From assembly GCF_003334355.1 (NCBI RefSeq), contig NZ_QOWP01000008.1: DNA of 64,000 nucleotides; one strand, given 5' to 3'. Every line of letters starts with the position of its first letter. The stretch's first letter is position 1. The notes below the pieces were generated by a model. The model was not told where the DNA came from, ran no database searches, and saw only the letters and a list, made by a program, of their open reading frames with translations. Source of the DNA: Escherichia coli. Its GTDB lineage: Bacteria > Pseudomonadota > Gammaproteobacteria > Enterobacterales > Enterobacteriaceae. Positions 5,269 through 61,714 of the stretch are shown one piece after another. A program made the translations under genes and the position numbers.

Positions 5269-5387
5269 TTCCTGCCACGTAAGCCCCTCATCGGGCACTA
5301 AAACAGCAATACAAAAATATAACCCTCTGTAAATTACAGGGCATGGTGAGCGGCTTCGCTATGCCCAAAATCTGGAGAAAGCTCGCT

Positions 5388-6680
5388 ATGGATATTCCCG
5401 TTAATGCAGCAAAGCCGGGGCGTCGGCGTTATCTGACGCTGGTGATGATCTTTATTACGGTAGTCATTTGTTATGTCGACCGCGCCAACCTGGCCGTGGC
5501 TTCCGCCCATATTCAGGAAGAGTTCGGTATTACCAAAGCGCAAATGGGCTATGTATTTTCGGTCTTCGCCTGGCTTTATACGCTATGTCAGATCCCCGGC
5601 GGTTGGTTTTTAGATCGCGTAGGTTCTCGCGTGACTTATTTTATTGCGATATTTGGCTGGTCAGTGGCGACTTTATTCCAGGGCTTTGCCTCGGGATTAA
5701 TGTCATTAATTGGTCTGCGCGCGATAACCGGTATTTTCGAAGCGCCCGCTTTCCCGACCAATAACCGGATGGTGACCAGCTGGTTCCCGGAACATGAACG
5801 CGCTTCTGCCGTTGGTTTTTATACGTCTGGTCAGTTTGTCGGTCTGGCGTTTCTGACTCCGCTGCTGATCTGGATTCAGGAGATGTTGAGCTGGCACTGG
5901 GTGTTCATTGTCACTGGTGGTATCGGCATTATCTGGTCGCTGATTTGGTTTAAGGTTTATCAGCCGCCGCGCCTGACCAAAGGTATCAGCAAAGCTGAAC
6001 TGGATTACATTCGTGATGGCGGCGGTCTGGTGGATGGTGATGCGCCGGTGAAGAAAGAGGCGCGTCAGCCGTTAACAGCCAAAGACTGGAAACTGGTGTT
6101 CCATCGGAAACTGATCGGCGTCTATCTTGGGCAATTTGCGGTGGCTTCTACACTGTGGTTTTTCTTAACCTGGTTCCCGAACTATTTAACCCAGGAAAAA
6201 GGAATCACGGCGCTGAAAGCAGGCTTTATGACCACGGTGCCATTCCTCGCGGCGTTTGTCGGCGTCCTGCTCTCTGGCTGGGTCGCGGATCTGCTGGTAC
6301 GTAAGGGCTTTTCACTGGGCTTTGCGCGTAAAACGCCGATTATCTGCGGCTTGCTGATCTCCACCTGCATTATGGGCGCTAACTACACTAACGATCCGAT
6401 GATGATTATGTGCCTGATGGCGCTGGCATTCTTCGGCAACGGTTTTGCTTCGATTACCTGGTCGCTGGTCTCTTCTCTGGCACCGATGCGCCTGATTGGT
6501 TTAACCGGTGGCGTGTTTAACTTCGCCGGTGGTCTGGGCGGCATCACCGTTCCGCTGGTGGTGGGGTACCTGGCGCAGGGTTACGGTTTCGCACCTGCAC
6601 TGGTTTATATCTCCGCCGTCGCGTTGATTGGCGCGCTCTCTTACATCCTGCTGGTGGGCGATGTGAAGCGCGTTGGCTAA
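5388..6680 (+). CDS. dgoT: D-galactonate:H+ symporter (MFS)
   Basis: ORF track 5343..6680; start placed at [15 protein letters not shown] giving 430 aa; 12-TM MFS profile. Confidence 0.85.
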
Positions 6681-7741
6681 TCTTTCAACTGTGGAATATG
6701 CGCCACACCACTGCGCATAATCCACTTTCTTAAAGCCGGTGCGGTCAGGCATCGGCTTTTTACTATCTTGCCGAAGAGTTTTAAACGCAGTTTGCGGGTG
6801 GCGCGCCAGTAAGCGGTATTGAGCTTCTCTGGCTGCTTCAGTAACACCGAACGCAGAATGTCTGCGCTATCCAGCGCATAGCTAATCCCCTCCAGCGAAC
6901 TGGCGCTGATAAATCCTGCCGCTTCGCCAATCAGAAAGGCGTTGTCCTTACCGCAGACAAAATCCTGCCAGCGTGAGGGAAACAGCACCGTGCATTTTTC
7001 GCTTTTCACCGCCTTACCAAACTGGAACTGAAAGGCGCTCATTTTCTCTTTCAGCGTCGTGAAACGCGTCTGACCGTCTTTCATTGGATAAGCACCGCCA
7101 AAGATAAAATAACCGTCTTTGCTGATACTCCATGAATAACAGTTAGTTATCGAATTATCAAAGATGCAGGAGTAGAACGGCACCGGATGTTTCTCTGCGA
7201 ACCACTGCTGGATAGCGACATATTTACGGATTTGATGATCCGGGTAGAGATGTCGCCGCACCATCGAGTTTGCGCCATCGGCACCGACCAGATAGCGGGC
7301 AGTAATATGTTGCTCCCAGCCGTCTGCACGAAAAATGACATGCCATTTATCATCCTCACGCCAGATTTTTCGACACAGGCTGTCGTGATAAACCTCAACG
7401 CTGGCGGGGATCAGCGATTTCATCCACAAGTCGAAAGCATGGCGATTAATATTGATATAGCTTCGCTGGTAGTTACGCGTGAGCGATGCGGCGACGTCGA
7501 CGGTTTTGACGCTGAAAATCTGCGGATTAGCGATCACATCGACAGGAAGCGTCAGCCCATCGCGAATAAAAGATAGCTGCGCGTCCGGTGCCAGCAGACC
7601 GCCGCAGGGTTTGCTGAAACCTTCAGTACCACACTGGTGCTTTTTATCCAGCGCGATCACCTGCATTTTGCCTGCTAACTTTCGTGCCAACGCCGATCCT
7701 GCCGGGCCGAGGCCAATAATCGCCACGTCGAAATGTTCCAT
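6677..7741 (-). CDS. cbrA: FAD-dependent oxidoreductase CbrA (colicin E2 tolerance)
   Basis: ORF 6677..7762; start at [19 protein letters not shown] (GxGxxG FAD motif) gives 354 aa; stop overlaps dgoT stop (convergent). Confidence 0.85.
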
Positions 7742-7805: not shown

Positions 7806-9056
7806 ATGATGGCGGGAACCGTTTTGTATCAGGACCACGCCATGAAACAGATAACCTTTGCTCCCCGTAATCACCTGCTCACCAATACCAATACCTGGAC
7901 GCCCGACAGCCAGTGGCTGGTATTTGACGTGCGTCCTTCTGGGGCGTCGTTTACCGGCGAGACCATTGAGCGTGTGAATATCCATACCGGCGAGGTCGAG
8001 GTTATCTATCGCGCGTCACAGGGCGCACATGTCGGCGTGGTGACCGTTCATCCGAAGTCAGATAAATATGTCTTTATTCACGGCCCTGAAAATCCTGATG
8101 AAACATGGCATTACGATTTCCATCATCGACGCGGAGTCATTGCTAAAGGCGGCAAGGTGAGCAATCTCGATGCAATGGATATTACTGCACCGTACACCCC
8201 AGGAGCGCTGCGCGGCGGCAGCCATGTACATGTCTTTAGCCCGGACGGTGAAAGGGTGAGCTTTACCTATAACGACCATGTAATGCATCAGCTCGATTCG
8301 GCGCTGGATTTGCGAAACGTCGGTGTTGCCGCACCGTTTGGTCCGGTGAATGTACAAAAGCAGCATCCGCGTGAATACAGCGGGAGCCACTGGTGTGTGC
8401 TGGTGAGCAAAACCACGCCCACGCCGCAGCCGGGCAGCGATGAAATCAATCGTGCTTATGAAGAAGGATGGGTAGGAAATCACGCGCTGGCGTTTATTGG
8501 CGACACACTTTCGCCAAAGGGCGAGAAAGTGCCGGAGCTGTTTATCGTTGAGTTACCGCAAGATGAAGCTGGCTGGAAAGCAGCAGGTGATGCGCCGTTA
8601 AGTGGAACGGAAACAACCCTGCCCGCGCCACCGCGTGGCGTCGTGCAGCGACGTTTAACCTTTACCCACCATCGGGCTTATCCGGGGTTAGTCAACGTCC
8701 CGCGCCACTGGGTGCGCTGTAATCCGCAGGGTACACAAATCGCGTTTTTAATGCGAGATGATAACGGCATTGTGCAACTGTGGCTTATCTCGCCACAGGG
8801 CGGCGAGCCGCGCCAGTTAACCCATAACAAAACGGATATTCAGTCTGCATTTAACTGGCATCCATCAGGAGAATGGTTGGGCTTTGTGCTGGATAATCGA
8901 ATTGCTTGTGCCCATGCGCAAAGCGGCGAGGTTGAGTATTTAACCGAAAACCACGCCAATCCACCTTCTGCGGACGCCGTGGTCTTCTCGCCGGATGGTC
9001 AATGGCTGGCGTGGATGGAAGGCGGCCAGCTGTGGATCACCGAAACTGATCGCTAA
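7806..9056 (+). CDS. yidR: YidR, beta-propeller (DUF3748) protein; start codon uncertain (ATG 7806/7809 or MKQ at 7842)
   Basis: 416-aa ORF; synteny between cbrA and yidQ. Confidence 0.8.
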   Translation: MMAGTVLYQDHAMKQITFAPRNHLLTNTNTWTPDSQWLVFDVRPSGASFTGETIERVNIHTGEVEVIYRASQGAHVGVVTVHPKSDKYVFIHGPENPDETWHYDFHHRRGVIAKGGKVSNLDAMDITAPYTPGALRGGSHVHVFSPDGERVSFTYNDHVMHQLDSALDLRNVGVAAPFGPVNVQKQHPREYSGSHWCVLVSKTTPTPQPGSDEINRAYEEGWVGNHALAFIGDTLSPKGEKVPELFIVELPQDEAGWKAAGDAPLSGTETTLPAPPRGVVQRRLTFTHHRAYPGLVNVPRHWVRCNPQGTQIAFLMRDDNGIVQLWLISPQGGEPRQLTHNKTDIQSAFNWHPSGEWLGFVLDNRIACAHAQSGEVEYLTENHANPPSADAVVFSPDGQWLAWMEGGQLWITETDR

Positions 9057-9057
9057 A

Positions 9058-9390
9058 TCAGTTATCAGGCATTCTGGCCGGTGGAATAACCGCATTGGTG
9101 GCTTGCGCGTTGGCTTCGCTTTTTTCAACGCGTGAGCGCACCGAGCTGTCTTTGCGGAACACATCCCACGGTAATAAAAGCGTGTCCATCACAGCGGTAA
9201 ACGGCATATCGAGAATCGCCAGCGACTTAGTGCCCCAGTTGGTTTCATCATCGCCAATCATGGTGGCGCTGGCGCGGGTGCCGGGATACGTTCCTTCTTT
9301 CCCTCCGGTATGGGACATCACGCTGGAGCATCCTCCGAGTAATGCCATTCCACTGCATATCATGAACGCTAACAACACATTTCTTATCAT
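9058..9390 (-). CDS. yidQ: Outer-membrane lipoprotein YidQ (DUF1375), 110 aa
   Basis: ORF 9058..9492; start placed at MIRNVLLAFMICSGMALLGGCSS (lipobox LGGC). Confidence 0.75.
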   Translation of the reverse strand: MIRNVLLAFMICSGMALLGGCSSVMSHTGGKEGTYPGTRASATMIGDDETNWGTKSLAILDMPFTAVMDTLLLPWDVFRKDSSVRSRVEKSEANAQATNAVIPPARMPDN

Positions 9391-10844: not shown

Positions 10845-12506
10845 ATGAGTGATATAGCATTAACGGTCAGTATTTTGGCTTTGGTGGCAGTCGTCGGTTT
10901 GTTTATCGGCAACGTCAAATTTCGCGGCATAGGATTAGGTATTGGCGGCGTGCTGTTTGGTGGGATCATCGTCGGCCATTTTGTTTCTCAGGCGGGGATG
11001 ACATTAAGTAGCGATATGCTGCATGTTATTCAGGAATTTGGCCTGATTCTGTTCGTTTATACTATCGGGATTCAGGTAGGGCCGGGCTTCTTTGCCTCAT
11101 TGCGCGTCTCCGGATTACGCCTCAACCTGTTTGCTGTTCTGATCGTCATCATCGGTGGTCTGGTTACCGCCATCCTGCATAAACTGTTTGATATTCCACT
11201 GCCGGTAGTGCTGGGGATTTTCTCCGGTGCGGTAACCAATACGCCAGCGCTGGGGGCAGGGCAGCAGATCTTGCGCGACTTGGGTACACCAATGGAAATG
11301 GTCGATCAGATGGGGATGAGTTACGCGATGGCGTATCCATTCGGCATTTGCGGGATATTGTTCACCATGTGGATGTTGCGGGTTATTTTCCGCGTCAATG
11401 TCGAGACAGAAGCCCAGCAGCACGAGTCTTCACGCACCAATGGCGGCGCGCTGATCAAGACTATCAATATTCGCGTTGAGAACCCTAACCTGCATGATTT
11501 AGCCATTAAAGATGTACCGATTCTCAACGGCGACAAAATTATCTGCTCGCGTCTGAAACGAGAAGAAACCCTAAAAGTACCTTCGCCAGATACCATTATC
11601 CAACTGGGCGATTTGCTGCATCTGGTGGGGCAGCCAGCGGATTTACATAATGCGCAACTGGTGATTGGTCAGGAGGTCGATACCTCGCTGTCCACGAAAG
11701 GCACTGATTTGCGCGTCGAGCGTGTGGTGGTCACCAATGAAAACGTGCTTGGTAAGCGTATTCGCGACCTGCATTTTAAAGAACGCTATGACGTTGTTAT
11801 CTCGCGCCTGAACCGTGCCGGGGTCGAACTGGTCGCCAGTGGCGATATCAGCCTGCAGTTCGGCGATATCCTCAATCTGGTGGGGCGTCCGTCCGCAATT
11901 GATGCCGTTGCCAATGTGCTGGGGAATGCGCAGCAAAAACTGCAACAGGTTCAGATGCTGCCAGTGTTTATTGGCATCGGGCTAGGCGTATTGTTAGGTT
12001 CTATTCCCGTCTTTGTGCCAGGATTCCCGGCCGCGTTGAAACTGGGGCTGGCGGGCGGACCGCTGATTATGGCGTTGATCCTCGGGCGTATCGGCAGTAT
12101 CGGCAAGCTGTACTGGTTTATGCCGCCAAGCGCCAACCTCGCGCTGCGGGAGCTGGGGATCGTGCTGTTCCTCTCGGTCGTTGGTCTGAAATCTGGTGGG
12201 GATTTTGTGAATACCCTGGTCAATGGCGAAGGGCTAAGCTGGATTGGTTATGGTGCCCTGATCACCGCCGTTCCGCTGATTACTGTTGGCATTCTGGCGC
12301 GGATGTTAGCCAAAATGAATTACCTGACCATGTGCGGGATGCTGGCAGGTTCCATGACCGATCCTCCGGCGCTGGCGTTTGCTAATAATCTTCATCCAAC
12401 CAGCGGTGCGGCGGCGCTCTCTTACGCCACTGTCTATCCGTTGGTAATGTTCCTGCGCATTATCACCCCCCAATTACTGGCGGTGCTCTTCTGGAGTATC
12501 GGTTAA
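10845..12506 (+). CDS. yidE: Putative AAE-family transporter YidE (two RCK_C/TrkA-C domains)
   Basis: ORF 10821..12506; start at [12 protein letters not shown] gives 553 aa. Confidence 0.85.
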
Positions 12507-13140
12507 CTCTTTTCCGGGTGGAGTCGCCGTAAATGGTACTCCACCTGGTATTCGCTGGCATTTCTGAACATCACTGAATAATTCAAAAACTCCCCGCTCT
12601 CGCTATATGACAACGAGGTTATCCGCAGCAGTGGCGTGTGTTCCGCTACCTTCATTTGCCGCGCCAGCAGTCTATCGGCGAGCACTGGCGTCAGGCTTTC
12701 ATAATTACCGCCAATCAAAATCCCGCACTCTTGTTCAATATATTCAAACTTCGACCCTTCCAGATGTTGCAGCGAAAGATTACGGAACAGTTTTACCGGC
12801 ATATAGCTGTCTTCCAGCATCAGCGGTTTCCCTTCCACAAAACGAACGCGACGGGAGAAGTAGATCTGCTCGTTGATTTGAATCCGTAACTGGCTGGCAA
12901 TGGCCGGAGGCGCAGGCATGATTTCAAAAATCAGCACCTGGCTGGTGACCGTTTTTCCCTGCCGTGGCGGCGGACCACCAATCCCCACGCTACCAGCAGG
13001 TCAATGGCTTTACGGATGGTCATCCGCGATACCGCAAATTCTTCCGCCAACTTTTTTTCACCGGGAAGAAGGCTATTTAGCGTGAAATCTGCGGAATTAA
13101 GTCGAATTCTTAACCGCTCCGCAATGCTTTTGTAGATCAT
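12503..13140 (-). pseudogene. yidP: GntR/HutC-family regulator YidP, apparently frameshifted (HTH part 12931..13140 in one frame, UTRA part 12503..12988 in another)
   Basis: Two overlapping minus-strand ORFs in different frames: N-terminal HTH (MIYKSIAERL...VVRRHG) and C-terminal UTRA effector domain; the frame switch lies near a ggg-aaaaa-cgg run at ~12950-12960. Confidence 0.6.
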
Positions 13141-13435: not shown

Positions 13436-17264
<3,829 letters not shown>

Positions 17265-21939: not shown

Positions 21940-22433
21940 CAGGAAGTCAGGTCATTGATGCTGAAGAGGACAGGCATAAACTGGTTGTAGAGTACAAGGA
22001 TGCTCTGCAACCTGCCGATTTTTATCACAATTTCAAACAGCGGGGCATCCGCTCCGTACAGCTCATTCCCTATCTTGAATTTGATGACCGGGGCGATCTG
22101 ACGGCCGCTTCGGTGACAGCAGAGCTGTGGGGGAAATTTTTAATTGCCCTGTTCGAGTGTTGGGTGCGGGCAGATATCAGTCGTATCTCGATTGAGCTTT
22201 TTGACGCCACCTTACAAAAATGGTGTGGCAGCGAAAACCCGCAACCGCGCTGTGACTGCCAGGCGTGCGACTGGCATCGCCTGTGCCCGCACGCTCGGCA
22301 GGAGACGCCAGACAGCGTGCTTTGTGCGGGCTATCAGGCGTTTTATTCTTACTCCGCACCGCATATGCGGGTGATGCGTGATCTGATAAAGCAGCATCGT
22401 TCTCCCATGGAGCTGATGACGATGCTGCGGTGA
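21936..22433 (+). CDS. yidF: YidF, Cys-rich protein resembling the C-terminal (SPASM-like) part of anaerobic sulfatase-maturating enzymes
   Basis: 165-aa ORF with CDCQACDWHRLCPHARQ and LCAGYQAF cysteine motifs; no radical-SAM CxxxCxxC N-terminal domain. Confidence 0.75.
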   Translation: MTGSQVIDAEEDRHKLVVEYKDALQPADFYHNFKQRGIRSVQLIPYLEFDDRGDLTAASVTAELWGKFLIALFECWVRADISRISIELFDATLQKWCGSENPQPRCDCQACDWHRLCPHARQETPDSVLCAGYQAFYSYSAPHMRVMRDLIKQHRSPMELMTMLR

Positions 22434-22440
22434 CGTGCGC

Positions 22441-23625
22441 TTAAACGGGCTGCCCCTGATGCGACATCCGCGTCGCCAGCGGCAGCCAGCACAGCACGAT
22501 CAACAATCCCATTAAGGTCATCAACAACCCCAGGCTGCCCTGACCGGTTTGCGGCAACATCGCAGAGAGCGACGCCAGCACGCCGGAACCAATGTTTTGC
22601 AGACCGCCGACCAGCGCGCCAGCCGTGCCCGCCAGGAAGGGGAACGGCTCCATCGCGCCGCTGGTCGCCAGCGGAAACAGCATCCCGGCACCGAAAAAGA
22701 ACAGCGCGGCGGGAACGAGCAGCGTCCAGACATTCATCACGCCAAACCAGTCGGGGATCCACATCAGCAAGCCAGCCAGCAGGCAGCAGATAACCGACTG
22801 CCACATTAACGTGGAGAAGCGTTTATTGGGACGTCCGGCAAACCATGCGCCAAAAAACGCTGCCGGAATCGGCAGAATAAACAAAATACTGACCGTCATA
22901 CTGCTCAGCCCTAACACCGCGCCCATCAGCACGCCGGAGCAGGCTTCAAAGGCGGCAATCCCGGCCAGACCGCCAATCAGCATCAGCAAATAACAGTTAA
23001 AACCGCTGTTACCGAAAAGCGTTTTATAACTGGTAAGCAGGCGCGTGCGCGGTGCATCGACCGGACGCGTTTCCGGCATCCAGCGGGCCATACTGAAGGT
23101 CACACCAGCACAAAGAACCAACAAAAAGAGATAACAGGCGCGCCAGTTCCACATCGTATCCAGCAGACCGCCGATTAGCGGTGCGAGCAACGGACTGACG
23201 AGAATCCCCATGTTTAACAGGCTGTTAGCATGGCGCAACTGTGTCCGTTCATATAAATCTCGCGGCAAAGTACGCGCCATTACGCCGCCAACGCCGGTGC
23301 CCATCCCCTGCATCGCGCTGGCGGCAATCAACACCGTCAAACTGGAGGTCGTGACCGCGACCAGCGTTGCCAGCATAAAAATGGACATTCCGACGAGGAT
23401 CACCGGTCGGCGGCCCACGCGGTCGGAAATCGGGCCATAAAACAGCTGTGAGACACCGTAAGTCAGCAGATAAGCGCCCATTACGCTCTGCACCGCCCCT
23501 TCACGGACGTTGAGATCGCGCGCCATATCGGCAATAGCTGGAATATAAATGGTTTGCGCCATCTGACCGACGGCCACGAGTAATACCAACATCAATAACA
23601 AATTGACGTTTCTTTGCCTTTTCAT
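22441..23625 (-). CDS. emrD: Multidrug efflux MFS transporter EmrD
   Basis: ORF 22441..23631; start at MKRQRNVNLLLMLVLL gives 394 aa. Confidence 0.9.
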   Translation of the reverse strand: MKRQRNVNLLLMLVLLVAVGQMAQTIYIPAIADMARDLNVREGAVQSVMGAYLLTYGVSQLFYGPISDRVGRRPVILVGMSIFMLATLVAVTTSSLTVLIAASAMQGMGTGVGGVMARTLPRDLYERTQLRHANSLLNMGILVSPLLAPLIGGLLDTMWNWRACYLFLLVLCAGVTFSMARWMPETRPVDAPRTRLLTSYKTLFGNSGFNCYLLMLIGGLAGIAAFEACSGVLMGAVLGLSSMTVSILFILPIPAAFFGAWFAGRPNKRFSTLMWQSVICCLLAGLLMWIPDWFGVMNVWTLLVPAALFFFGAGMLFPLATSGAMEPFPFLAGTAGALVGGLQNIGSGVLASLSAMLPQTGQGSLGLLMTLMGLLIVLCWLPLATRMSHQGQPV

Positions 23626-30377: not shown

Positions 30378-31769
30378 ATGCTGGCTTTCCTAAACCAGGT
30401 TCGCAAGCCGACCCTGGACCTTCCGCTCGAAGTGCGGCGCAAAATGTGGTTCAAACCGTTCATGCAATCCTACCTGGTGGTCTTTATCGGCTACCTGACG
30501 ATGTACCTGATTCGCAAGAACTTTAACATCGCGCAGAACGATATGATTTCGACCTACGGGTTGAGCATGACGCAGCTGGGGATGATCGGCCTGGGTTTCT
30601 CCATCACTTATGGCGTGGGTAAAACGTTGGTTTCATACTACGCCGACGGCAAAAACACCAAACAATTCCTGCCGTTCATGCTTATCCTCTCTGCTATTTG
30701 TATGCTGGGCTTCAGTGCCAGTATGGGCAGCGGCTCGGTTAGCCTGTTCCTGATGATTGCCTTCTACGCCTTAAGCGGCTTTTTCCAGAGTACCGGCGGT
30801 TCGTGCAGTTACTCCACCATCACCAAATGGACGCCGCGTCGTAAACGCGGGACATTCCTCGGTTTCTGGAATATTTCTCACAACCTTGGCGGTGCAGGCG
30901 CAGCAGGTGTGGCGCTGTTCGGGGCAAATTACCTGTTCGATGGCCATGTCATCGGCATGTTTATCTTCCCGTCGATTATCGCGCTGATTGTCGGTTTTAT
31001 CGGCCTGCGTTACGGTAGCGACTCCCCGGAATCTTATGGCCTCGGCAAAGCTGAAGAACTGTTCGGCGAGGAGATCAGCGAAGAGGACAAAGAGACAGAA
31101 TCTACCGATATGACCAAGTGGCAGATCTTTGTTGAGTATGTGCTGAAAAACAAAGTGATCTGGCTGCTGTGCTTCGCCAACATTTTCCTCTATGTGGTAC
31201 GTATTGGTATCGACCAGTGGTCAACCGTATACGCGTTCCAGGAACTGAAACTCTCTAAAGCGGTGGCGATTCAGGGCTTTACGCTGTTTGAAGCTGGTGC
31301 GCTGGTCGGTACGCTGCTGTGGGGCTGGCTCTCTGACCTGGCGAACGGTCGCCGTGGCCTGGTGGCCTGCATCGCGCTGGCGCTGATTATCGCCACGCTC
31401 GGTGTGTATCAACATGCCAGCAACGAATATATCTATCTGGCTTCTCTCTTTGCGTTGGGTTTCCTGGTCTTTGGCCCGCAATTGTTGATTGGTGTGGCTG
31501 CTGTTGGCTTTGTACCTAAAAAAGCGATTGGCGCTGCCGATGGTATTAAAGGCACCTTTGCTTACCTGATTGGTGACAGCTTTGCCAAGTTAGGTCTGGG
31601 AATGATTGCCGATGGGACGCCGGTATTCGGCCTTACCGGCTGGGCAGGCACCTTCGCCGCACTTGATATCGCCGCGATTGGTTGTATCTGCCTGATGGCG
31701 ATAGTGGCGGTGATGGAAGAACGCAAAATCCGCCGCGAGAAAAAAATTCAGCAGTTGACAGTGGCATAA
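30378..31769 (+). CDS. uhpT: Hexose-6-phosphate:phosphate antiporter UhpT
   Basis: 463-aa MFS/OPA ORF. Confidence 0.95.
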
Positions 31770-31787
31770 ACGTAACTGGTGACTTTT

Positions 31788-31812
31788 GCCCGGCATGACG
31801 CCGGGCTTTTTT
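31788..31812. terminator. Terminator hairpin between convergent uhpT and ade
   Basis: gcccggc-atgac-gccgggc followed by T6. Confidence 0.8.
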
Positions 31813-31813
31813 A

Positions 31814-33580
31814 TTATTCCGTGACTTCCAGCGTAGTGAAGGCAAACTTCTCGCCATCAAATAGCCCCTGACTGGTTAGTTTTAGCGCGGGGATCACTGG
31901 CAGAGAAAGAAACGCCATCTGAATAAACGGCTCATCGGGTAACGGACCGCATTCACGGGCGGCGGCTTTCAAGGCGTCAATCTGTTCCGCCAGCGACTGC
32001 GCCGTGTCGGTGCTCATCAGGCCGGCAATGGGCAACGGCAGATGACTTTGGACCTGGCCGTTACGTACCACGCACAGCCCGCCGCCATCCTGAATCACCT
32101 GATTGACCGCCAGCGCCATCTCTTCGGCACTGCGACCGATCACCACAATATTATGGCTGTCATGGCTGACCGTCGCAGCCAGCGCACCTTCATTCAGTCC
32201 AAAGCCGCCAAGCAAACCACAAGCCGGAGCCAGCCGTTGCCCGTAACGCTCAAGTACGGCAATAAAGCTCACATCATCGCGATCAAAACCATTTTCGCTG
32301 TAGACGCTGGAGTGGGAGTGCGTAATCAATTCGTTATGGATGACGTCAATGACCCGATAGCGTTTTCCGGGCGTAAATTGCAGGGCAAAGTCGCTGGCGG
32401 AAACTGGCTGGCGGGCAATGGTGTTGCCATATGGCGGAGCGGATTGTGCCAGTCTCGCCGACTCTTCCGCCTGTAAGGTTTGCGCATCAATCGGCTCGCC
32501 TTTCACCAGTACCTGCTGCACCGTGACCTTACGCGCATCGCTCAACAGGACGATATCGGCCTGCTTGCCGGGTGCCAGTAAGCCGAGGTGATTCAGACCA
32601 AAGTGGCGCGCCGTCGACCAGCTGGCGACGCGATATGCCACATGCAGCGGCACATTGTGTTGTTCGATCAGGCGGCGAATTAAGGCATCGATGTGTCCTT
32701 CATGGGCGATCTCCCACGGGTTACGGTCATCGGTACAGAGCATGCATTGCGGGCTGTTAAATTCGTTGATCAACGGTGCCAGCGCGTTGAGATTGCGGGC
32801 AGCGGACCCTTCGCGGATCATCAACGACATGCCGAGTTGTAATTTCCGGCGTCCTTCTTCCAGCTGATAACTTTCGTGGCAGTTTTCAATACCCGCAGTA
32901 ATATAGGCGTTAAGTTCTTTACCACCCAAACCCGGGCAGTGACCGTCCAGCGTCAGGTGGCGAAATGCATCCAGTTTATCGAGCAGCGCATTCTGCCCGC
33001 TAATTACGCCAGGGTAGTCCATCATTTCTGCAAGGCCGGTAACCTGCGGATGGTCCCGCCAGGCGAGCATCTGTTCAAGGGTAAAACTGGCACCGTTAAC
33101 ATCGCAGCCTTCCAGGGCGGGTACGCAAGAGCTGACCTGTAAGTACTGGTTTTGCCTTGCCTGTTCGGCACAGCGGGCAAACCAGGCGAATCCGGCTTCT
33201 CCCATCACGTTGACGATTTCATGAGGGTCGCAAATAACGGTCGTCAGGCCGCGCGGCAGGGTAGCGGTTTCAAAAGTGACCGGCGTCATCATGCTGGATT
33301 CAATATGCAGGTGAGCATCAATAAACCCTGGCACCGCCGTTGCGCCGCGAGCATCAATCCGCTGCAAAGCCGGAGCATCAGCGTATTCTGCGCCAACACC
33401 GGCAATGTAACGTCCTTTAATCACAATTGGGCCGGAAATTTCTCCGCCATTGATCAGGTCGAGAATAGAGACATTATCAATAATATAATCGGCAACAGCG
33501 TCGCCACGGGAAACGGCTAACAATTCCTGGTATTCAGCCCGGCTAATGTGATGAAATTTATGGTTAATAGAATTATTCAT
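31814..33580 (-). CDS. ade: Adenine deaminase (amidohydrolase superfamily)
   Basis: 588-aa ORF; metal-binding motif [12 protein letters not shown]. Confidence 0.9.
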
Positions 33581-37550: not shown

Positions 37551-38369
37551 ATGAAACTGACAACACATCATCTACGGACAGGGGCCGCATTATTGCTGGC
37601 CGGAATTCTGCTGGCAGGTTGCGACCAGAGTAGCAGCGATGCAAAACACATTAAAGTTGGCGTTATAAATGGCGCAGAACAAGATGTCGCGGAAGTCGCT
37701 AAAAAGGTGGCAAAAGAGAAATATGGCCTCGATGTTGAACTGGTAGGATTTAGCGGTTCGTTGCTACCGAACGATGCGACAAATCATGGCGAACTTGATG
37801 CGAATGTCTTCCAGCATCGACCCTTTCTTGAACAAGATAATCAGGCGCATGGTTATAAACTGGTAGCGGTGGGAAATACGTTTGTCTTCCCTATGGCGGG
37901 TTATTCCAAAAAAATCAAAACCGTGGCGCAAATAAAAGAAGGCGCGACAGTGGCGATCCCCAACGACCCGACCAACCTTGGTCGCGCACTTTTACTGTTG
38001 CAAAAAGAGAAGCTAATTACTCTGAAAGAGGGAAAAGGGTTATTACCTACCGCGCTGGATATAACCGATAATCCTCGTCATTTGCAGATTATGGAACTCG
38101 AGGGGGCGCAGCTCCCGCGCGTACTGGATGATCCCAAAGTTGATGTGGCGATTATCAGCACCACTTACATTCAGCAGACCGGGCTTTCTCCGGTGCACGA
38201 CAGCGTATTTATTGAAGATAAAAATTCGCCGTATGTGAATATTTTGGTGGCACGGGAAGATAATAAGAATGCAGAAAACGTGAAGGAATTTCTGCAATCT
38301 TATCAATCATCCGAAGTCGCTAAAGCGGCAGAAACCATCTTTAACGGTGGCGCGGTGCCTGGCTGGTAA
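37551..38369 (+). CDS. nlpA: Lipoprotein-28 NlpA (MetQ-like methionine-binding lipoprotein)
   Basis: 272-aa ORF; lipobox LLAGC. Confidence 0.9.
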   Translation: MKLTTHHLRTGAALLLAGILLAGCDQSSSDAKHIKVGVINGAEQDVAEVAKKVAKEKYGLDVELVGFSGSLLPNDATNHGELDANVFQHRPFLEQDNQAHGYKLVAVGNTFVFPMAGYSKKIKTVAQIKEGATVAIPNDPTNLGRALLLLQKEKLITLKEGKGLLPTALDITDNPRHLQIMELEGAQLPRVLDDPKVDVAIISTTYIQQTGLSPVHDSVFIEDKNSPYVNILVAREDNKNAENVKEFLQSYQSSEVAKAAETIFNGGAVPGW

Positions 38370-38372
38370 TTC

Positions 38373-39296
38373 TCACTCATCCCGCGCCGGACGATTTATT
38401 TTTCTGGCGCGGCGACGGGAATCCATTGAAATCAAAATTACCGATGACAGAATCAGCAGCGTTCCCAGCCAGTCCGGTAATGTGAACGTGATCCCCAGCA
38501 ACAGCAAAGAGAGTAGCGCGCTACTTAATGGTTCTGCACAGCTCAAAATGCTGGCTTTTGGACCGCCAATTAATTGTGCTCCTTTCAGGTACAGACTAAA
38601 TGTCAGGGACGTACCAATGACGATCAAATAAAAAAACGCCAAAATCAAACTGCCGTTAACGACAAAGTTTGTCCCTTGTCTGGCATAAAAAGGCAACAGA
38701 ATCAGACCGCCGATCAGCATACTCCAGCCGACGACAGACAACGTGCCATAGCGGGCAATTAGCGTTGAGGGATAGGTGGTATAGAATGCAGCAGCAAATG
38801 CCGAGGCAATGCCCCAGAACAACGCGGCAGGAGAGATCGATAATGACGTCGGATTACCGTGTGTCACCAATAAAAAAGTCCCGACCAGCGATGTCAAAAT
38901 AGCGCAGAAAACCAGAATGCCCGGGCGCGATTTACGCACCAGTGAGAACCAGGCGACGATAATCGTCGGTGAGAGGAATTGCAGCACCGTTGCCGTGGCT
39001 GCGTTCGATTTTTCGATGGTTAGCAAAAAAGTGAGCTGTACAGTTAGCGCGCCAACCACGGAAAAAATCAGCAGGCTAATGGCATCTTTATGATTGTTAA
39101 TAATAGAAAAGATTTTATCGCCATGAACAAATGACAGCGTCAGTAGAATCAAACCGGCGAATATCAAACGCGTCATAGTCAAAAACTGCGACGACATCTG
39201 GCTTTGCTCCATGATGTATTGCGCGCAGACCCCTGAACTTCCCCACAACACGGCGGCAATCAGAACGTTCAGCATCCCCTTTCTGGTGGAACCCAT
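38373..39296 (-). CDS. yicL: EamA/DMT-family transporter YicL
   Basis: 307-aa ORF with 10-TM profile. Confidence 0.85.
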
Positions 39297-39406: not shown

Positions 39407-40591
39407 CTAAATATCTTTAATAAACAGCAGGCAAATTATCGCAATACCCAACATCCCTATCGCCAGCCAGAACAACGCATGGTAGCTCCAGATTTCAACC
39501 ATAATTCCGTCAACAGAGCCGGCGATAATCCAGCCGACGCGTGAAGTATTTGCATATAACGTTGTCGCAGAGCCTATTTTTTCAGGCATCAGGTCCTGAA
39601 ATTAAAGCATGCCGATACCACAGAGAATACCAAGGAAGATGGCATTAAGAATTTGCAATTCCAGCTCAACCGCCGGAGTCGTCGCCATGAGTACGCTGGC
39701 GTAAAAACACATTCCACTCACGATAGCAATGAGCATTAATAGTCGCTTGCCAATACGTTTCATGTAATAGCCTGCGATTAACATCATCGGAATTTCCAGA
39801 CCGGCAGCGATACCAATCATTTCTCCAGCCAGTTTATCGGTTAGATGCAGTTCATCAATAATAAATAGCGGCATATTTATCATGTAGAGATTATTCGCCG
39901 CCCACATCATTGAACAGACCACAAAAAGTAGCCGCGTATCCCGCTTCCTGTGGGTGGAGGGTAAAATTTCTACGGGTTGGGTAACGACAGGAATATTTCT
40001 TTGTATTGATGGCAAAAACAACCAGACTATCAGCCCGCAAACAACAAATGCGATGGCAGCGGTGAGATACATCACTTTAAAACTAAATCCCATTGCCAGT
40101 TCATAAGCGAGCGGTGGCCCGATAACCCAGGCAAGCGAGATCTGAGCACGTAAAAATGTACTGAACATGACCGTCTCACGGCCTGTTCTGTCGGCGTGTT
40201 CACGGGCGAGGGCGAACATTTGCGGGTTTGCGGTGGAAGCAAAACTACTCAGAAGTACGCCCGTTGAGAGGAGAATGAAGTAGTTGCGATTCCACGCAAA
40301 AAGCGTGCAGGCCAGCACTCCAAATAAGCAACATAGCAGAATCAGTAATTTACGGTCGCCTTGTTTATCGGAGTGCCTTGCCAGAAATTGACTGACCAGA
40401 ATTCCCATAATAGCGCTACCGGTGAAGAAAAAACCTACCATTATAGGACGGGCTTTCAGTTCATCTGCGAGGAATATACTTAGGGTAGGAGTCTGAAGAG
40501 CGCCCGCAATACCCGTCAGAAAGGCGACAAGTAAAAATGCCGCGGCAGTGAGATCAAGTATTTTTGATGGAGTGGTAGCCGTTTTTTGCAT
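39407..40591 (-). pseudogene. setC: MFS sugar efflux transporter SetC with an in-frame TAA at 39602-39604 (fragments of 329 aa and 60+ aa)
   Basis: ORFs 39602..40591 and 39407..39589 are in the same frame, separated only by a TAA and 4 sense codons; 329+1+4+60 = 394 codons, the length recalled for intact SetC. Confidence 0.7.
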
Positions 40592-41227: not shown

Positions 41228-41322
41228 TGGCGGAAGATCACAGGAGTCGAACCTGCCCGGGACCGCTGGCGGCCCCAACTGGATTTGAAGTCCAGCCGCC
41301 TCACCGGAGACGACGATCTTCC
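41228..41322 (-). tRNA. selC: tRNA-Sec (selenocysteine tRNA)
   Basis: 95-nt sequence whose reverse complement reads GGAAGATCGTCGTCTCCGGTGAGGCGGCTGGACTTCAAATCCAGTTGGGGCCGCCAGCGGTCCCGGGCAGGTTCGACTCCTGTGATCTTCCGCCA, with anticodon TCA and encoded CCA end. Confidence 0.95.
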
Positions 41323-56335: not shown

Positions 56336-58670
<2,335 letters not shown>

Positions 58671-58961: not shown

Positions 58962-59786
58962 CTATTTCTTCTCTGTAATTTTTACACTGTTTTCCAACTG
59001 CTTGATGCTGACCTGCGGGGTCGGCAACTCCTCAGGCATGGTTCCGCCAAGTTCCTGAATGGTTTGCCTCACCTTGCGACCCACGTCAAAGTGTGTGGTG
59101 TTTGCTTGCTGTTTTGAATTCACGCCATCCCGCTTGAGTTTTTCTTCTGTTTGGGTAGCTCGAAAGAGATTAGCCGCCAGTTCTGTTGAACCCATATGAT
59201 CCAGGATCTTCTGACTCTTTTTCAGCCCCTTCCGCTGATGGATGGCTTTCTGATCTAATCCACCATACAGCCCCCGGTAACCATGATTCTGAAATATGGC
59301 GAAATCGATAGCTGTCGCTACCCCAGCTTGCTGCGCTGCCTCAACTAATTGTTTGTTATGTTCTTTCAATTCATTTCTCAGAAAAAGACGCTTTTCGTCT
59401 TCACGAAGTTGCCTGAAAGCTTCATCGTCAGCCAGCTCCTGCCGTCGGGTCTGGATAGCAAAATAAGTTTGCCCTGCCGCAATAACCGGTTTCGCAGGGT
59501 CGCCGTTTTGTACTACCAGGTAACAGGCATAGCGGGAGAGATGAACATCTTCAAGTTCTCGTTGAGCCCCTGAACCTAATACAACCATTTTGGTGGTTTC
59601 AACGAAATGGTCAGATGCAGCTTGATTGCTGGCTTCGCACGCTTGAGTCGCGCGGGCAAGTACCTTTTGAAAATTGCGCCAGTCCCGATAATCCAGTAAC
59701 GGTGCCAATTCTCTCGCTGACCAAAATTCTTGCCCTTCAGTGCCATAATGCCGTATTTCTTCAAAAGGTTGATGATGTTCGTTCAT
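58962..59786 (-). CDS. dinD: DNA-damage-inducible protein DinD
   Basis: ORF 58962..59798; start at MNEHHQPFEE gives 274 aa; LexA box 46 bp upstream. Confidence 0.85.
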   Translation of the reverse strand: MNEHHQPFEEIRHYGTEGQEFWSARELAPLLDYRDWRNFQKVLARATQACEASNQAASDHFVETTKMVVLGSGAQRELEDVHLSRYACYLVVQNGDPAKPVIAAGQTYFAIQTRRQELADDEAFRQLREDEKRLFLRNELKEHNKQLVEAAQQAGVATAIDFAIFQNHGYRGLYGGLDQKAIHQRKGLKKSQKILDHMGSTELAANLFRATQTEEKLKRDGVNSKQQANTTHFDVGRKVRQTIQELGGTMPEELPTPQVSIKQLENSVKITEKK

Positions 59787-60997: not shown

Positions 60998-61714
60998 ATG
61001 CGTCCAGCAGGCCGTAGCAATAATCAGGTGCGTCCCGTTACCCTGACTCGTAACTATACAAAACATGCAGAAGGCTCGGTGCTGGTCGAATTTGGCGATA
61101 CCAAAGTGTTGTGTACCGCCTCTATTGAAGAAGGCGTGCCGCGCTTCCTGAAAGGTCAGGGCCAGGGCTGGATCACCGCAGAGTACGGCATGCTGCCACG
61201 TTCTACCCACACCCGTAACGCTCGTGAAGCGGCGAAAGGTAAGCAGGGTGGACGCACAATGGAAATCCAGCGTCTGATCGCCCGTGCTCTTCGCGCGGCA
61301 GTAGATTTGAAAGCGCTGGGTGAGTTCACCATTACGCTGGACTGCGACGTGCTTCAGGCTGATGGTGGCACGCGTACCGCGTCGATTACGGGTGCCTGCG
61401 TGGCGCTGGCAGATGCGCTACAGAAGCTGGTGGAAAACGGCAAGCTGAAAACCAACCCGATGAAAGGGATGGTAGCCGCAGTTTCTGTCGGAATTGTGAA
61501 CGGCGAAGCGGTTTGCGATCTGGAATACGTTGAAGACTCAGCCGCAGAGACCGACATGAACGTAGTGATGACCGAAGACGGGCGCATCATTGAAGTGCAG
61601 GGGACGGCAGAAGGCGAGCCGTTCACCCATGAAGAGTTACTCACCTTGTTGGCGCTGGCCCGAGGGGGAATCGAATCCATTGTAGCGACGCAGAAGGCGG
61701 CGCTGGCAAACTGA
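60998..61714 (+). CDS. rph: RNase PH, apparently wild-type full-length (238 aa)
   Basis: ORF 60974..61714; start at [14 protein letters not shown]; C-terminus ...[18 protein letters not shown] with an intact G5 run. Confidence 0.9.

Follow-up and report, generated by a model that had tools for sequence, protein, structure and literature searches.

Tail-to-tail gene pairs with 4-nt overlaps in a 64-kb Escherichia coli segment, and the signals that may end their transcripts

When two convergent genes share the last four nucleotides of their coding regions, is the arrangement a regulatory device, and where do the two transcripts end? The question is raised by four such pairs in the window, by which we mean the whole 64,000-nt stretch of DNA that was analysed. 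The window is a segment of the E. coli chromosome running from yidB to dut. Test stretches of it were 100% identical to several sequenced strains, and it is colinear with K-12 MG1655 positions 3,814,001–3,880,000, in the opposite orientation, with 98.2–99.3% identity. Gene coordinates were taken from the RefSeq annotation of near-identical E. coli genomes and cross-checked against the list of open reading frames (ORFs).

Four overlaps and the genes that form them

The first-pass annotation had listed four convergent pairs sharing 4 nt at their 3' ends, and all four were confirmed, with agreement between the ORF ends and RefSeq at each. The first joins dgoT (5343–6680, plus strand), which encodes a D-galactonate:H+ symporter of the MFS family and is the last gene of dgoRKADT, to cbrA (6677–7741, minus strand), which encodes the FAD-binding colicin M resistance lipid reductase. 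The shared tetramer is CTAA (6677–6680), containing the dgoT stop TAA at 6678–6680 and, on the minus strand, the cbrA stop TAG at 6677–6679. The second is formed by yidE (10845–12506, plus strand), a putative transporter gene, and yidP (12503–13140, minus strand), a GntR-family regulator gene that is a pseudogene in this strain; the stops of both lie in TTAA at 12503–12506. The tetramer TTAA also holds the stops of the third pair (16371–16374), which consists of glvG (15052–16374, plus strand), encoding 6-phospho-alpha-glucosidase, and yidL (16371–17264, minus strand), encoding an AraC-family regulator. The fourth pair is ligB (56374–58056, plus strand), encoding the NAD-dependent DNA ligase B, and yicG (58053–58670, minus strand), encoding a membrane protein of the trimeric intracellular cation channel family. 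Here the tetramer is TTAG (58053–58056), with TAG as the stop of ligB and TAA as that of yicG, and a TGA follows directly after the ligB stop.

The same four overlaps are present in the K-12 MG1655 annotation. Tetramers of the form [CT]TA[AG] occur 461 times in the window, and only these four close ORFs of at least 80 codons stop-to-stop on both strands. An annotation artefact was considered and rejected, given that the reading frame fixes the stop codons and that both partners belong to known families. Derivation of the junctions from a common repeat or mobile element was likewise rejected, the flanks having only chance 8–12-mers in common; because the junctions lack a common sequence, they are independent and do not represent one repeated element. 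An Rfam search returned no match at the four overlap junctions (matches elsewhere in the window were istR, ROSE and tRNA-Sec).

Some of the genes in the region are damaged in one strain or another. In this strain yidP carries a deletion of 76–79 nt as compared to K-12 and is annotated as frameshifted, so that it is in frame only at 12503–12988 (the last 161 codons), and a premature TAG occurs at 13943 in the PTS gene that precedes glvG. The glvG gene is intact here (440 aa), whereas in K-12 it is a truncated pseudogene with a 493-nt deletion.

The window contains 15 convergent junctions, seven of which have a gap of 7 nt or less when the overlaps are included. Three tight convergent junctions that the first-pass annotation did not mention are yidR/yidQ (9056–9058, 1-nt gap), nlpA/yicL (38369–38373, 3-nt gap) and yidF/emrD (22433–22441, 7-nt gap).

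Origin and frequency of the 4-nt offset

Very probably the four overlaps are independent instances of an ordinary type, the 4-nt convergent overlap of bacterial genes, which results from compaction of the genome together with the complementarity of stop codons and is no dedicated device. Where the last bases of a gene are a pyrimidine plus TAA or TAG, the opposite strand automatically reads TAG or TAA, shifted by one position. In the proposed mechanism, an ORF facing such a gene in that frame would, on losing the spacer or its own stop, be closed exactly at this point, with an overlap of 4 nt. Because a YTAR end supplies stops to both strands, it is the known modal class of convergent overlaps. 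Gene ends of this form, each holding a latent antisense stop, were found in 22 of the 54 genes in the window.

The class is well described. Lillo and Krakauer 2007 (PMC2174442) give CTAA, TTAA, CTAG and TTAG as the possible tetramers and 4 bp as the modal overlap, with 58 convergent overlaps in E. coli and 1890 across 58 genomes, 672 of them no longer than 4 nt. The pairs in the window agree with the 4-bp convergent overlaps of that study and of the PairWise Neighbours database (PMC2716372) in their tetramers, their 4-nt length and their membership of the modal class. The same origin has been proposed in those sources, namely extension of the 3' end after loss of a stop (PMC2174442, PMC2716372). 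There is no essential difference between the two sets, the window pairs being already annotated E. coli examples.

To place the four pairs against a background, eight 50-kb blocks of K-12 (400 kb, about 58 convergent junctions between coding sequences) were counted from annotation tables. The tables were used because a count from sequence alone, in which a tetramer must close an ORF of 80 codons or more on each strand, overcalled in the same sample, giving 14 matches of which five were annotated gene pairs. The K-12 sample held five exact 4-nt convergent overlaps (nei/abrB, purR/punR, zapC/ycbX, yccX/tusE and yfiM/kgtP) and three longer ones (offsets of -16, -20 and -38). When window and sample were taken together, -4 was the modal offset, found at 9 of 73 convergent junctions, and any other single offset near zero was found at no more than two.

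The background rate of 5 events per 400 kb has a 95% interval of 1.6–11.7, and it predicts 0.8 pairs in 64 kb as compared to the four observed (Poisson p = 0.009 per window; a genome would be expected to contain approximately 0.66 such windows). A conditional binomial test gave p = 0.026. When junctions were compared by Fisher's test (4/15 in the window, 5/58 in the sample), p was 0.08. One of the sampled 50-kb stretches elsewhere in K-12 held two 4-nt pairs. The four pairs are a mild local excess, measured against a small background count and not compelling given the number of windows in a genome.

The junctions were also compared across genera. Among 80 Enterobacteriaceae genomes the ligB/yicG junction was always tight, with an offset that depended on lineage and ranged from -7 to +5: -4 in 29 genomes, +2 in 12, +5 in 10, -7 in 6, and 0 or +1 in 4. 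The offset of -4 was found in Escherichia, Citrobacter, Salmonella and Kluyvera, that of +2, +1 or 0 in most Enterobacter and related genera, that of +5 in Klebsiella and Raoultella, and that of -7 (TCACTGA) mainly in Kosakonia. At the other end of the window, cbrA of Enterobacter soli faces yidA across a 37-nt spacer containing a hairpin, and in Kluyvera the gene opposite cbrA is a DUF4056 gene, 1 nt away. The yidQ/yidR junction, with its +1 offset in E. coli, is a 4-nt overlap in E. soli. CbrA of Citrobacter amalonaticus has 14 extra, non-conserved C-terminal residues, and its gene still overlaps dgoT by 4 nt at the dgoT stop; this fits what is expected if the ORF runs on until it is closed by the stop of its partner. 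Taken as a sequence comparison, the offsets fit gene ends that drift. A search for YidE homologues returned near-identical E. coli proteins, with no other species among the matches.

Probable transcript ends within the partner coding sequence

An mRNA must contain its own stop codon, and each transcript of an overlapping pair therefore enters the antisense strand of its partner. The first-pass annotation had gone further, stating that the overlaps leave no room for a terminator and imply read-through into the partner's antisense. The former holds for intergenic terminators and fails as a general statement, since Rho termination regions and terminator-like hairpins lie within the partner coding sequences. 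The latter has been demonstrated in K-12 for two of the eight directions, and is not peculiar to overlapping pairs. Transcript ends mapping upstream of the overlaps had been named as the refuting observation; because a translatable mRNA spans its own stop, such 3' ends would belong to mRNAs lacking stop codons, and this is unrealistic as a refutation. The K-12 Term-seq data of Adams et al. 2021 list no 3' end at or just before the ligB/yicG and yidE/yidP overlaps.

With no spacer, each transcript would end inside the partner gene, and there are precedents for signals located there: among the convergent overlaps of E. coli, Rho-independent terminators were reported in 20% of 116 genes, necessarily within partner coding sequence (PMC2174442). 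For Rho, C-rich untranslated antisense RNA past the stop codon would be the substrate; K-12 data demonstrate this past yicG and yidE, and it may hold for the other directions. The antisense RNA past the stop codons was C-rich in six of eight directions (C/G ratio of 1.13–1.32, versus 0.885 for the sense strands), a measure of composition only and one that antisense of coding sequence would be expected to show. The exceptions were glvG (0.89) and ligB (0.96), and the two directions with Rho data, yicG (1.32) and yidE (1.24), were among the highest.

Rho termination regions in K-12 were mapped by Adams et al. 2021 (PMC7815308) in bicyclomycin experiments. Past yicG, in the antisense of ligB, a region at K-12 position 3,819,922 (plus strand) lies 431 nt beyond the yicG stop and has a Rho score of 18.3; reads upstream and downstream of it numbered 423 and 24 in untreated cells and 210 and 218 with bicyclomycin (PMC7815308). 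It maps to about position 57,622 of the window (57600–57640, minus strand; approximate). Past yidE, in the antisense of yidP, a region at K-12 position 3,864,468 (minus strand) has a score of 3.97 and lies 144 nt beyond the stop of yidE (PMC7815308); it maps, at low resolution, to about position 12,650 (12640–12660, plus strand).

Antisense Rho regions were also reported downstream of slmA, recG, yicH, yicL, yidQ, yidF and yidA, which belong to seven non-overlapping convergent pairs (PMC7815308). Four of these pairs (slmA/pyrE, recG/gltS, yicH/yicI and yidA/yidX) have spacers of 36–168 nt, and the three others are the tight junctions described above: yidR/yidQ has a Term-seq 3' end and a Rho region antisense to yidR, nlpA/yicL a Rho region antisense to nlpA, and yidF/emrD one antisense to emrD (PMC7815308). 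As the non-overlapping pairs share antisense Rho regions, entry into the partner that is stopped by Rho is a regional rule, whether or not the genes overlap. Peters et al. in 2012, as cited by Adams et al., reportedly described Rho suppression of antisense read-through at E. coli convergent genes. That Rho-dependent termination has this role at such genes is documented by Adams et al. and by Magan et al. 2019 (PMC7815308, PMC6847712); the bicyclomycin-sensitive regions antisense to ligB and yidP, past the overlaps, are of the same kind, with the difference that at the overlapping pairs they have been seen in two of eight directions only.

The published LB and M63 datasets hold no entries for dgoT, cbrA, glvG, yidL, ligB and yidP, and the TERMITe supplement has none for these genes. 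The genes at dgoT/cbrA and glvG/yidL are most likely silent in LB and glucose media, which would account for nothing being listed near these two junctions; the absence of a Term-seq 3' end near dgoT is uninformative. All eight genes of the overlapping pairs are taken to be weakly or conditionally expressed, and from what is established about them collisions between polymerases would probably be rare.

Hairpins were sought with our own ViennaRNA scan for compact hairpins of -14 kcal/mol or lower with T tails; a threshold of -9 kcal/mol gave mostly noise. A standard terminator scan had returned about as many matches as in shuffled sequence, and it missed the dgoT hairpin. The window contained 11 compact, strong, T-tailed hairpins, eight of them at known 3' ends or attenuators (yidB, ibpB, istR, ivbL, ilvN, uhpT, rph and tisB). 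The remaining three comprised one internal to xanP and two at the dgoT and yicG junctions, where a hairpin written in partner codons may either terminate transcription intrinsically or protect the 3' end as a stem-loop. In the other six directions the scan found no intrinsic-terminator hairpin with a U tract.

The predicted intrinsic-terminator-like element of dgoT (6733–6765, plus strand) lies 53–78 nt past the dgoT stop, within cbrA codons. It consists of AAGCCGGTGCGGTCAGGCATCGGCTT followed by TTTACTAT, with a dG of about -17 to -18 kcal/mol and the U tract UUUUUAC, and so combines a stem-loop with a U tract, a combination present only in part at yicG. A second predicted hairpin, also in cbrA codons, lies at 6691–6725 (plus strand), 11–45 nt past the stop (dG of -16.2, tail TTTCTTAA). 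The hairpin at 6733–6765 occurs unchanged in K-12; in Citrobacter, Salmonella salamae, Enterobacter soli and Kluyvera, the orthologous codons of cbrA lack it. Because it is missing in these four other genera, it could be recent or fortuitous.

The hairpin past yicG (57998–58033, minus strand) lies 20–45 nt beyond the yicG stop, in the last codons of ligB (KLGSWLAAQ). It has the form GCTGGGCAGCCAGCCAACTGCCCAGC (dG of -17.4), followed by the imperfect, interrupted U tract TTCTTGATTT. The hairpin is kept in Escherichia, Citrobacter and Salmonella, with 98.9% of the cells of the alignment paired. Two compensatory pairs were observed (G-C to A-U, and A-U to C-G), and the covariation score was reached by none of 500 shuffles. 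This is suggestive of a structure maintained by compensatory changes, yet it represents only two evolutionary events within coding sequence. Term-seq (Adams et al. 2021) shows no 3' end at the hairpin. Because Rho-sensitive read-through passes it and its U tract is interrupted, of the two roles predicted for the hairpin, that of a protective 3' stem-loop is more likely than that of a weak terminator.

Protective stem-loops of this kind have been described by Dar and Sorek 2018 (PMC6061677), who found stable stem-loops at the ends of Rho-dependent transcripts and rut sites a short way downstream of them. The yicG stem-loop resembles these in lacking a good U tract, in following soon after the stop, and in having C-rich sequence and a Rho region downstream; it differs in being written in the coding sequence of the partner and in having no 3' end mapped to it (PMC6061677).

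Competing explanations and what the overlaps mean

Four other readings of these junctions were weighed. According to one, the architecture is excludon-like and selected, the absence of a spacer being kept for its effect: when one gene is transcribed, its partner is repressed, either through collision of polymerases or through antisense RNA pairing and cleavage by RNase III. Convergent genes lacking an intervening terminator are one recognised excludon layout, and the pairs have the arrangement of figure 3b in the review, with overlapping 3' UTRs (PMC7154746). In addition, transcripts reach 144–431 nt into the partner in two directions in K-12, the tight apposition of ligB and yicG (-7 to +5) has been held across Enterobacteriaceae, and 4-nt pairs are mildly in excess locally. 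An excludon is, however, defined functionally by reciprocal regulation (PMC7154746), whereas the match here is one of layout, and Rho limits the length of the overlap. The first-pass annotation had raised transcriptional interference as a possibility. In published reporter work, a weakly transcribed gene could be repressed by strong transcription from a convergent partner, an interference that Rho-dependent termination is reported to relieve at closely spaced convergent genes (PMC6847712). Antisense transcripts shortened by Rho, and the like behaviour of pairs separated by spacers, speak against a selected excludon. So do the drift of the exact offset between genera, the exchange of the cbrA partner (dgoT, yidA or a DUF4056 gene), and the persistence of the overlaps despite the loss of an intact yidP in this strain and of an intact glvG in K-12. 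No functional link between the partners of any pair is evident, and we regard this reading as highly unlikely. Another reading is a model in which converging polymerases pause at a hairpin element in the overlap region and terminate each other independently of Rho, which we consider the least probable of the readings. Ju et al. in 2019 are said to have described overlapping bidirectional terminators with collision-driven termination. A preprint that summarises this work (bioRxiv 10.1101/2022.10.23.513370) sets out the model, which has been proposed for many E. coli convergent pairs, together with single-molecule evidence. A palindromic hairpin element is present at the ligB/yicG junction, which resembles the pairs in the preprint in being convergent with a hairpin element nearby. 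The sites described there are Rho-independent, whereas the read-through past yicG and yidE is bicyclomycin-sensitive, and thus Rho-dependent, and the hairpin lies inside the ligB ORF, upstream of its own stop, where termination would truncate the ligB mRNA. Moreover, both genes must be actively transcribed under this model and these are weakly expressed, no hairpin is present at the other junctions, and the published K-12 Term-seq lists no 3' ends on either strand at the junctions.

A regional effect, in which the yid/yic segment is unusually compact at its gene tails through a history of cassette insertion and deletion among poorly expressed accessory genes that would account for the recurrence in place of the general genome-wide rate, was judged to have a very low probability, between those of the two preceding readings. 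Pairs are about fivefold denser in the 64 kb than in the background sample (p about 0.01–0.03, uncorrected for multiple windows), with 4 of 15 junctions overlapping as compared to 5 of 58 and three more having gaps of 1–7 nt; gene content beside cbrA varies between genera, and strain-specific deletions or pseudogenes affect yidP, glvC, glvG and setC. The statistics are weak (Fisher p = 0.08, about 0.7 such windows expected per genome), another sampled 50-kb stretch also holds two such pairs, and the effect is compatible with the explanation by standard overlaps without supplying an alternative mechanism. It is very unlikely, although slightly less so than the readings above, that signals in partner codons are kept by selection to insulate the overlaps, the balance of hairpin and Rho past yicG setting the invasion of ligB from the dinD/yicG side. 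The candidates for such selected insulation might be the yicG hairpin in ligB codons and the E. coli-specific dgoT terminator in cbrA codons. If this were true, expression of ligase B would be coupled to its neighbour by the yicG hairpin/Rho balance, in an excludon-like manner.

Under the standard-overlap reading, which we prefer, much of what the locus displays is familiar: the overlap class, described statistically since the 2000s, these four examples (in the K-12 annotation), and the clean-up by Rho, including that at two of these junctions, are already known. The analysis brings a correction, in that a missing intergenic spacer is not the same as missing termination signals, which the coding sequence of the partner can carry. 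Mildly new are the two embedded hairpins, after dgoT and yicG, the latter with compensatory evolution. These embedded hairpins could be small test cases of sequence that is both protein-coding and transcript-ending.

Gene lesions near the yidE/yidP and glvG/yidL overlaps

Relative to K-12 (MG1655), yidP is frameshifted by a deletion of 76-79 nt, with the deletion point at window positions 12962-12965. The same lesion is present in E. coli strains PSS-12 and H6, where yidP is annotated as 'frameshifted'. The glvC-like PTS IIBC gene (13436-15052, + strand) carries an internal TAG at 13943-13945, where strain H6 reads CAG. Because of this stop codon the strain probably lacks a working glv operon, despite its intact glvG. 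The glvG lesion of K-12 is a different one, a 493-nt deletion.

Other differences from reference strains

The setC gene (39602-40591, - strand) ends at a premature stop in this strain, a TAG at about 39602-39604 that falls at codon 330 of 394; full-length setC is annotated in PSS-12 and K-12. The tRNA-Sec gene, selC (41228-41322, - strand), is a site without an inserted island here. At this site strain H6 has a heat-resistance island exceeding 20 kb, with a rhuM fragment close by. Within the 5' portion of dinD, approximately 213 nt (59541-59753) gave no K-12 alignment at BLAST stringency, and the flanks of this stretch are 98-99% identical to K-12; judged from these alignments, the stretch may be a recombination patch. 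The rph gene (60998-61714, + strand) is full-length at 238 codons, and that of MG1655 is truncated.

Convergent ends at uhpT/adeD and ligB/yicG

A further convergent junction in the window is uhpT/adeD (about 31769-31814), at which one gene's 3' RNA meets the partner: at the corresponding K-12 site (3845730-3845995), the annotated sRNA UhpU, from the 3' end of uhpT, adjoins the adeD stop.

The end of ligB (58054-58059) is a tandem stop, TAG followed directly by TGA. Loss of the shared TAG would leave the LigB protein unextended. In the cross-genome comparison of ligB/yicG loci, the YicG encoded on contig L035 (CACSKA010000004.1) is enterobacterial (89% identity), and the contig bears the label Chryseobacterium sp. 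18061; this assembly is probably mislabelled or contaminated. Five Enterobacter-group genomes (L017, L020, L025, L028 and L039) carry a hairpin within ligB different from that of E. coli, located ~60-93 nt past the yicG stop (GGCGC...GCGCC, tail TTCTCTTC, dG about -12 to -16). The spacing of the facing gene ends in these hairpin-bearing genomes is mostly +2, a 2-nt gap, with -7 in L017. Post-yicG hairpins therefore recur at non-homologous positions.
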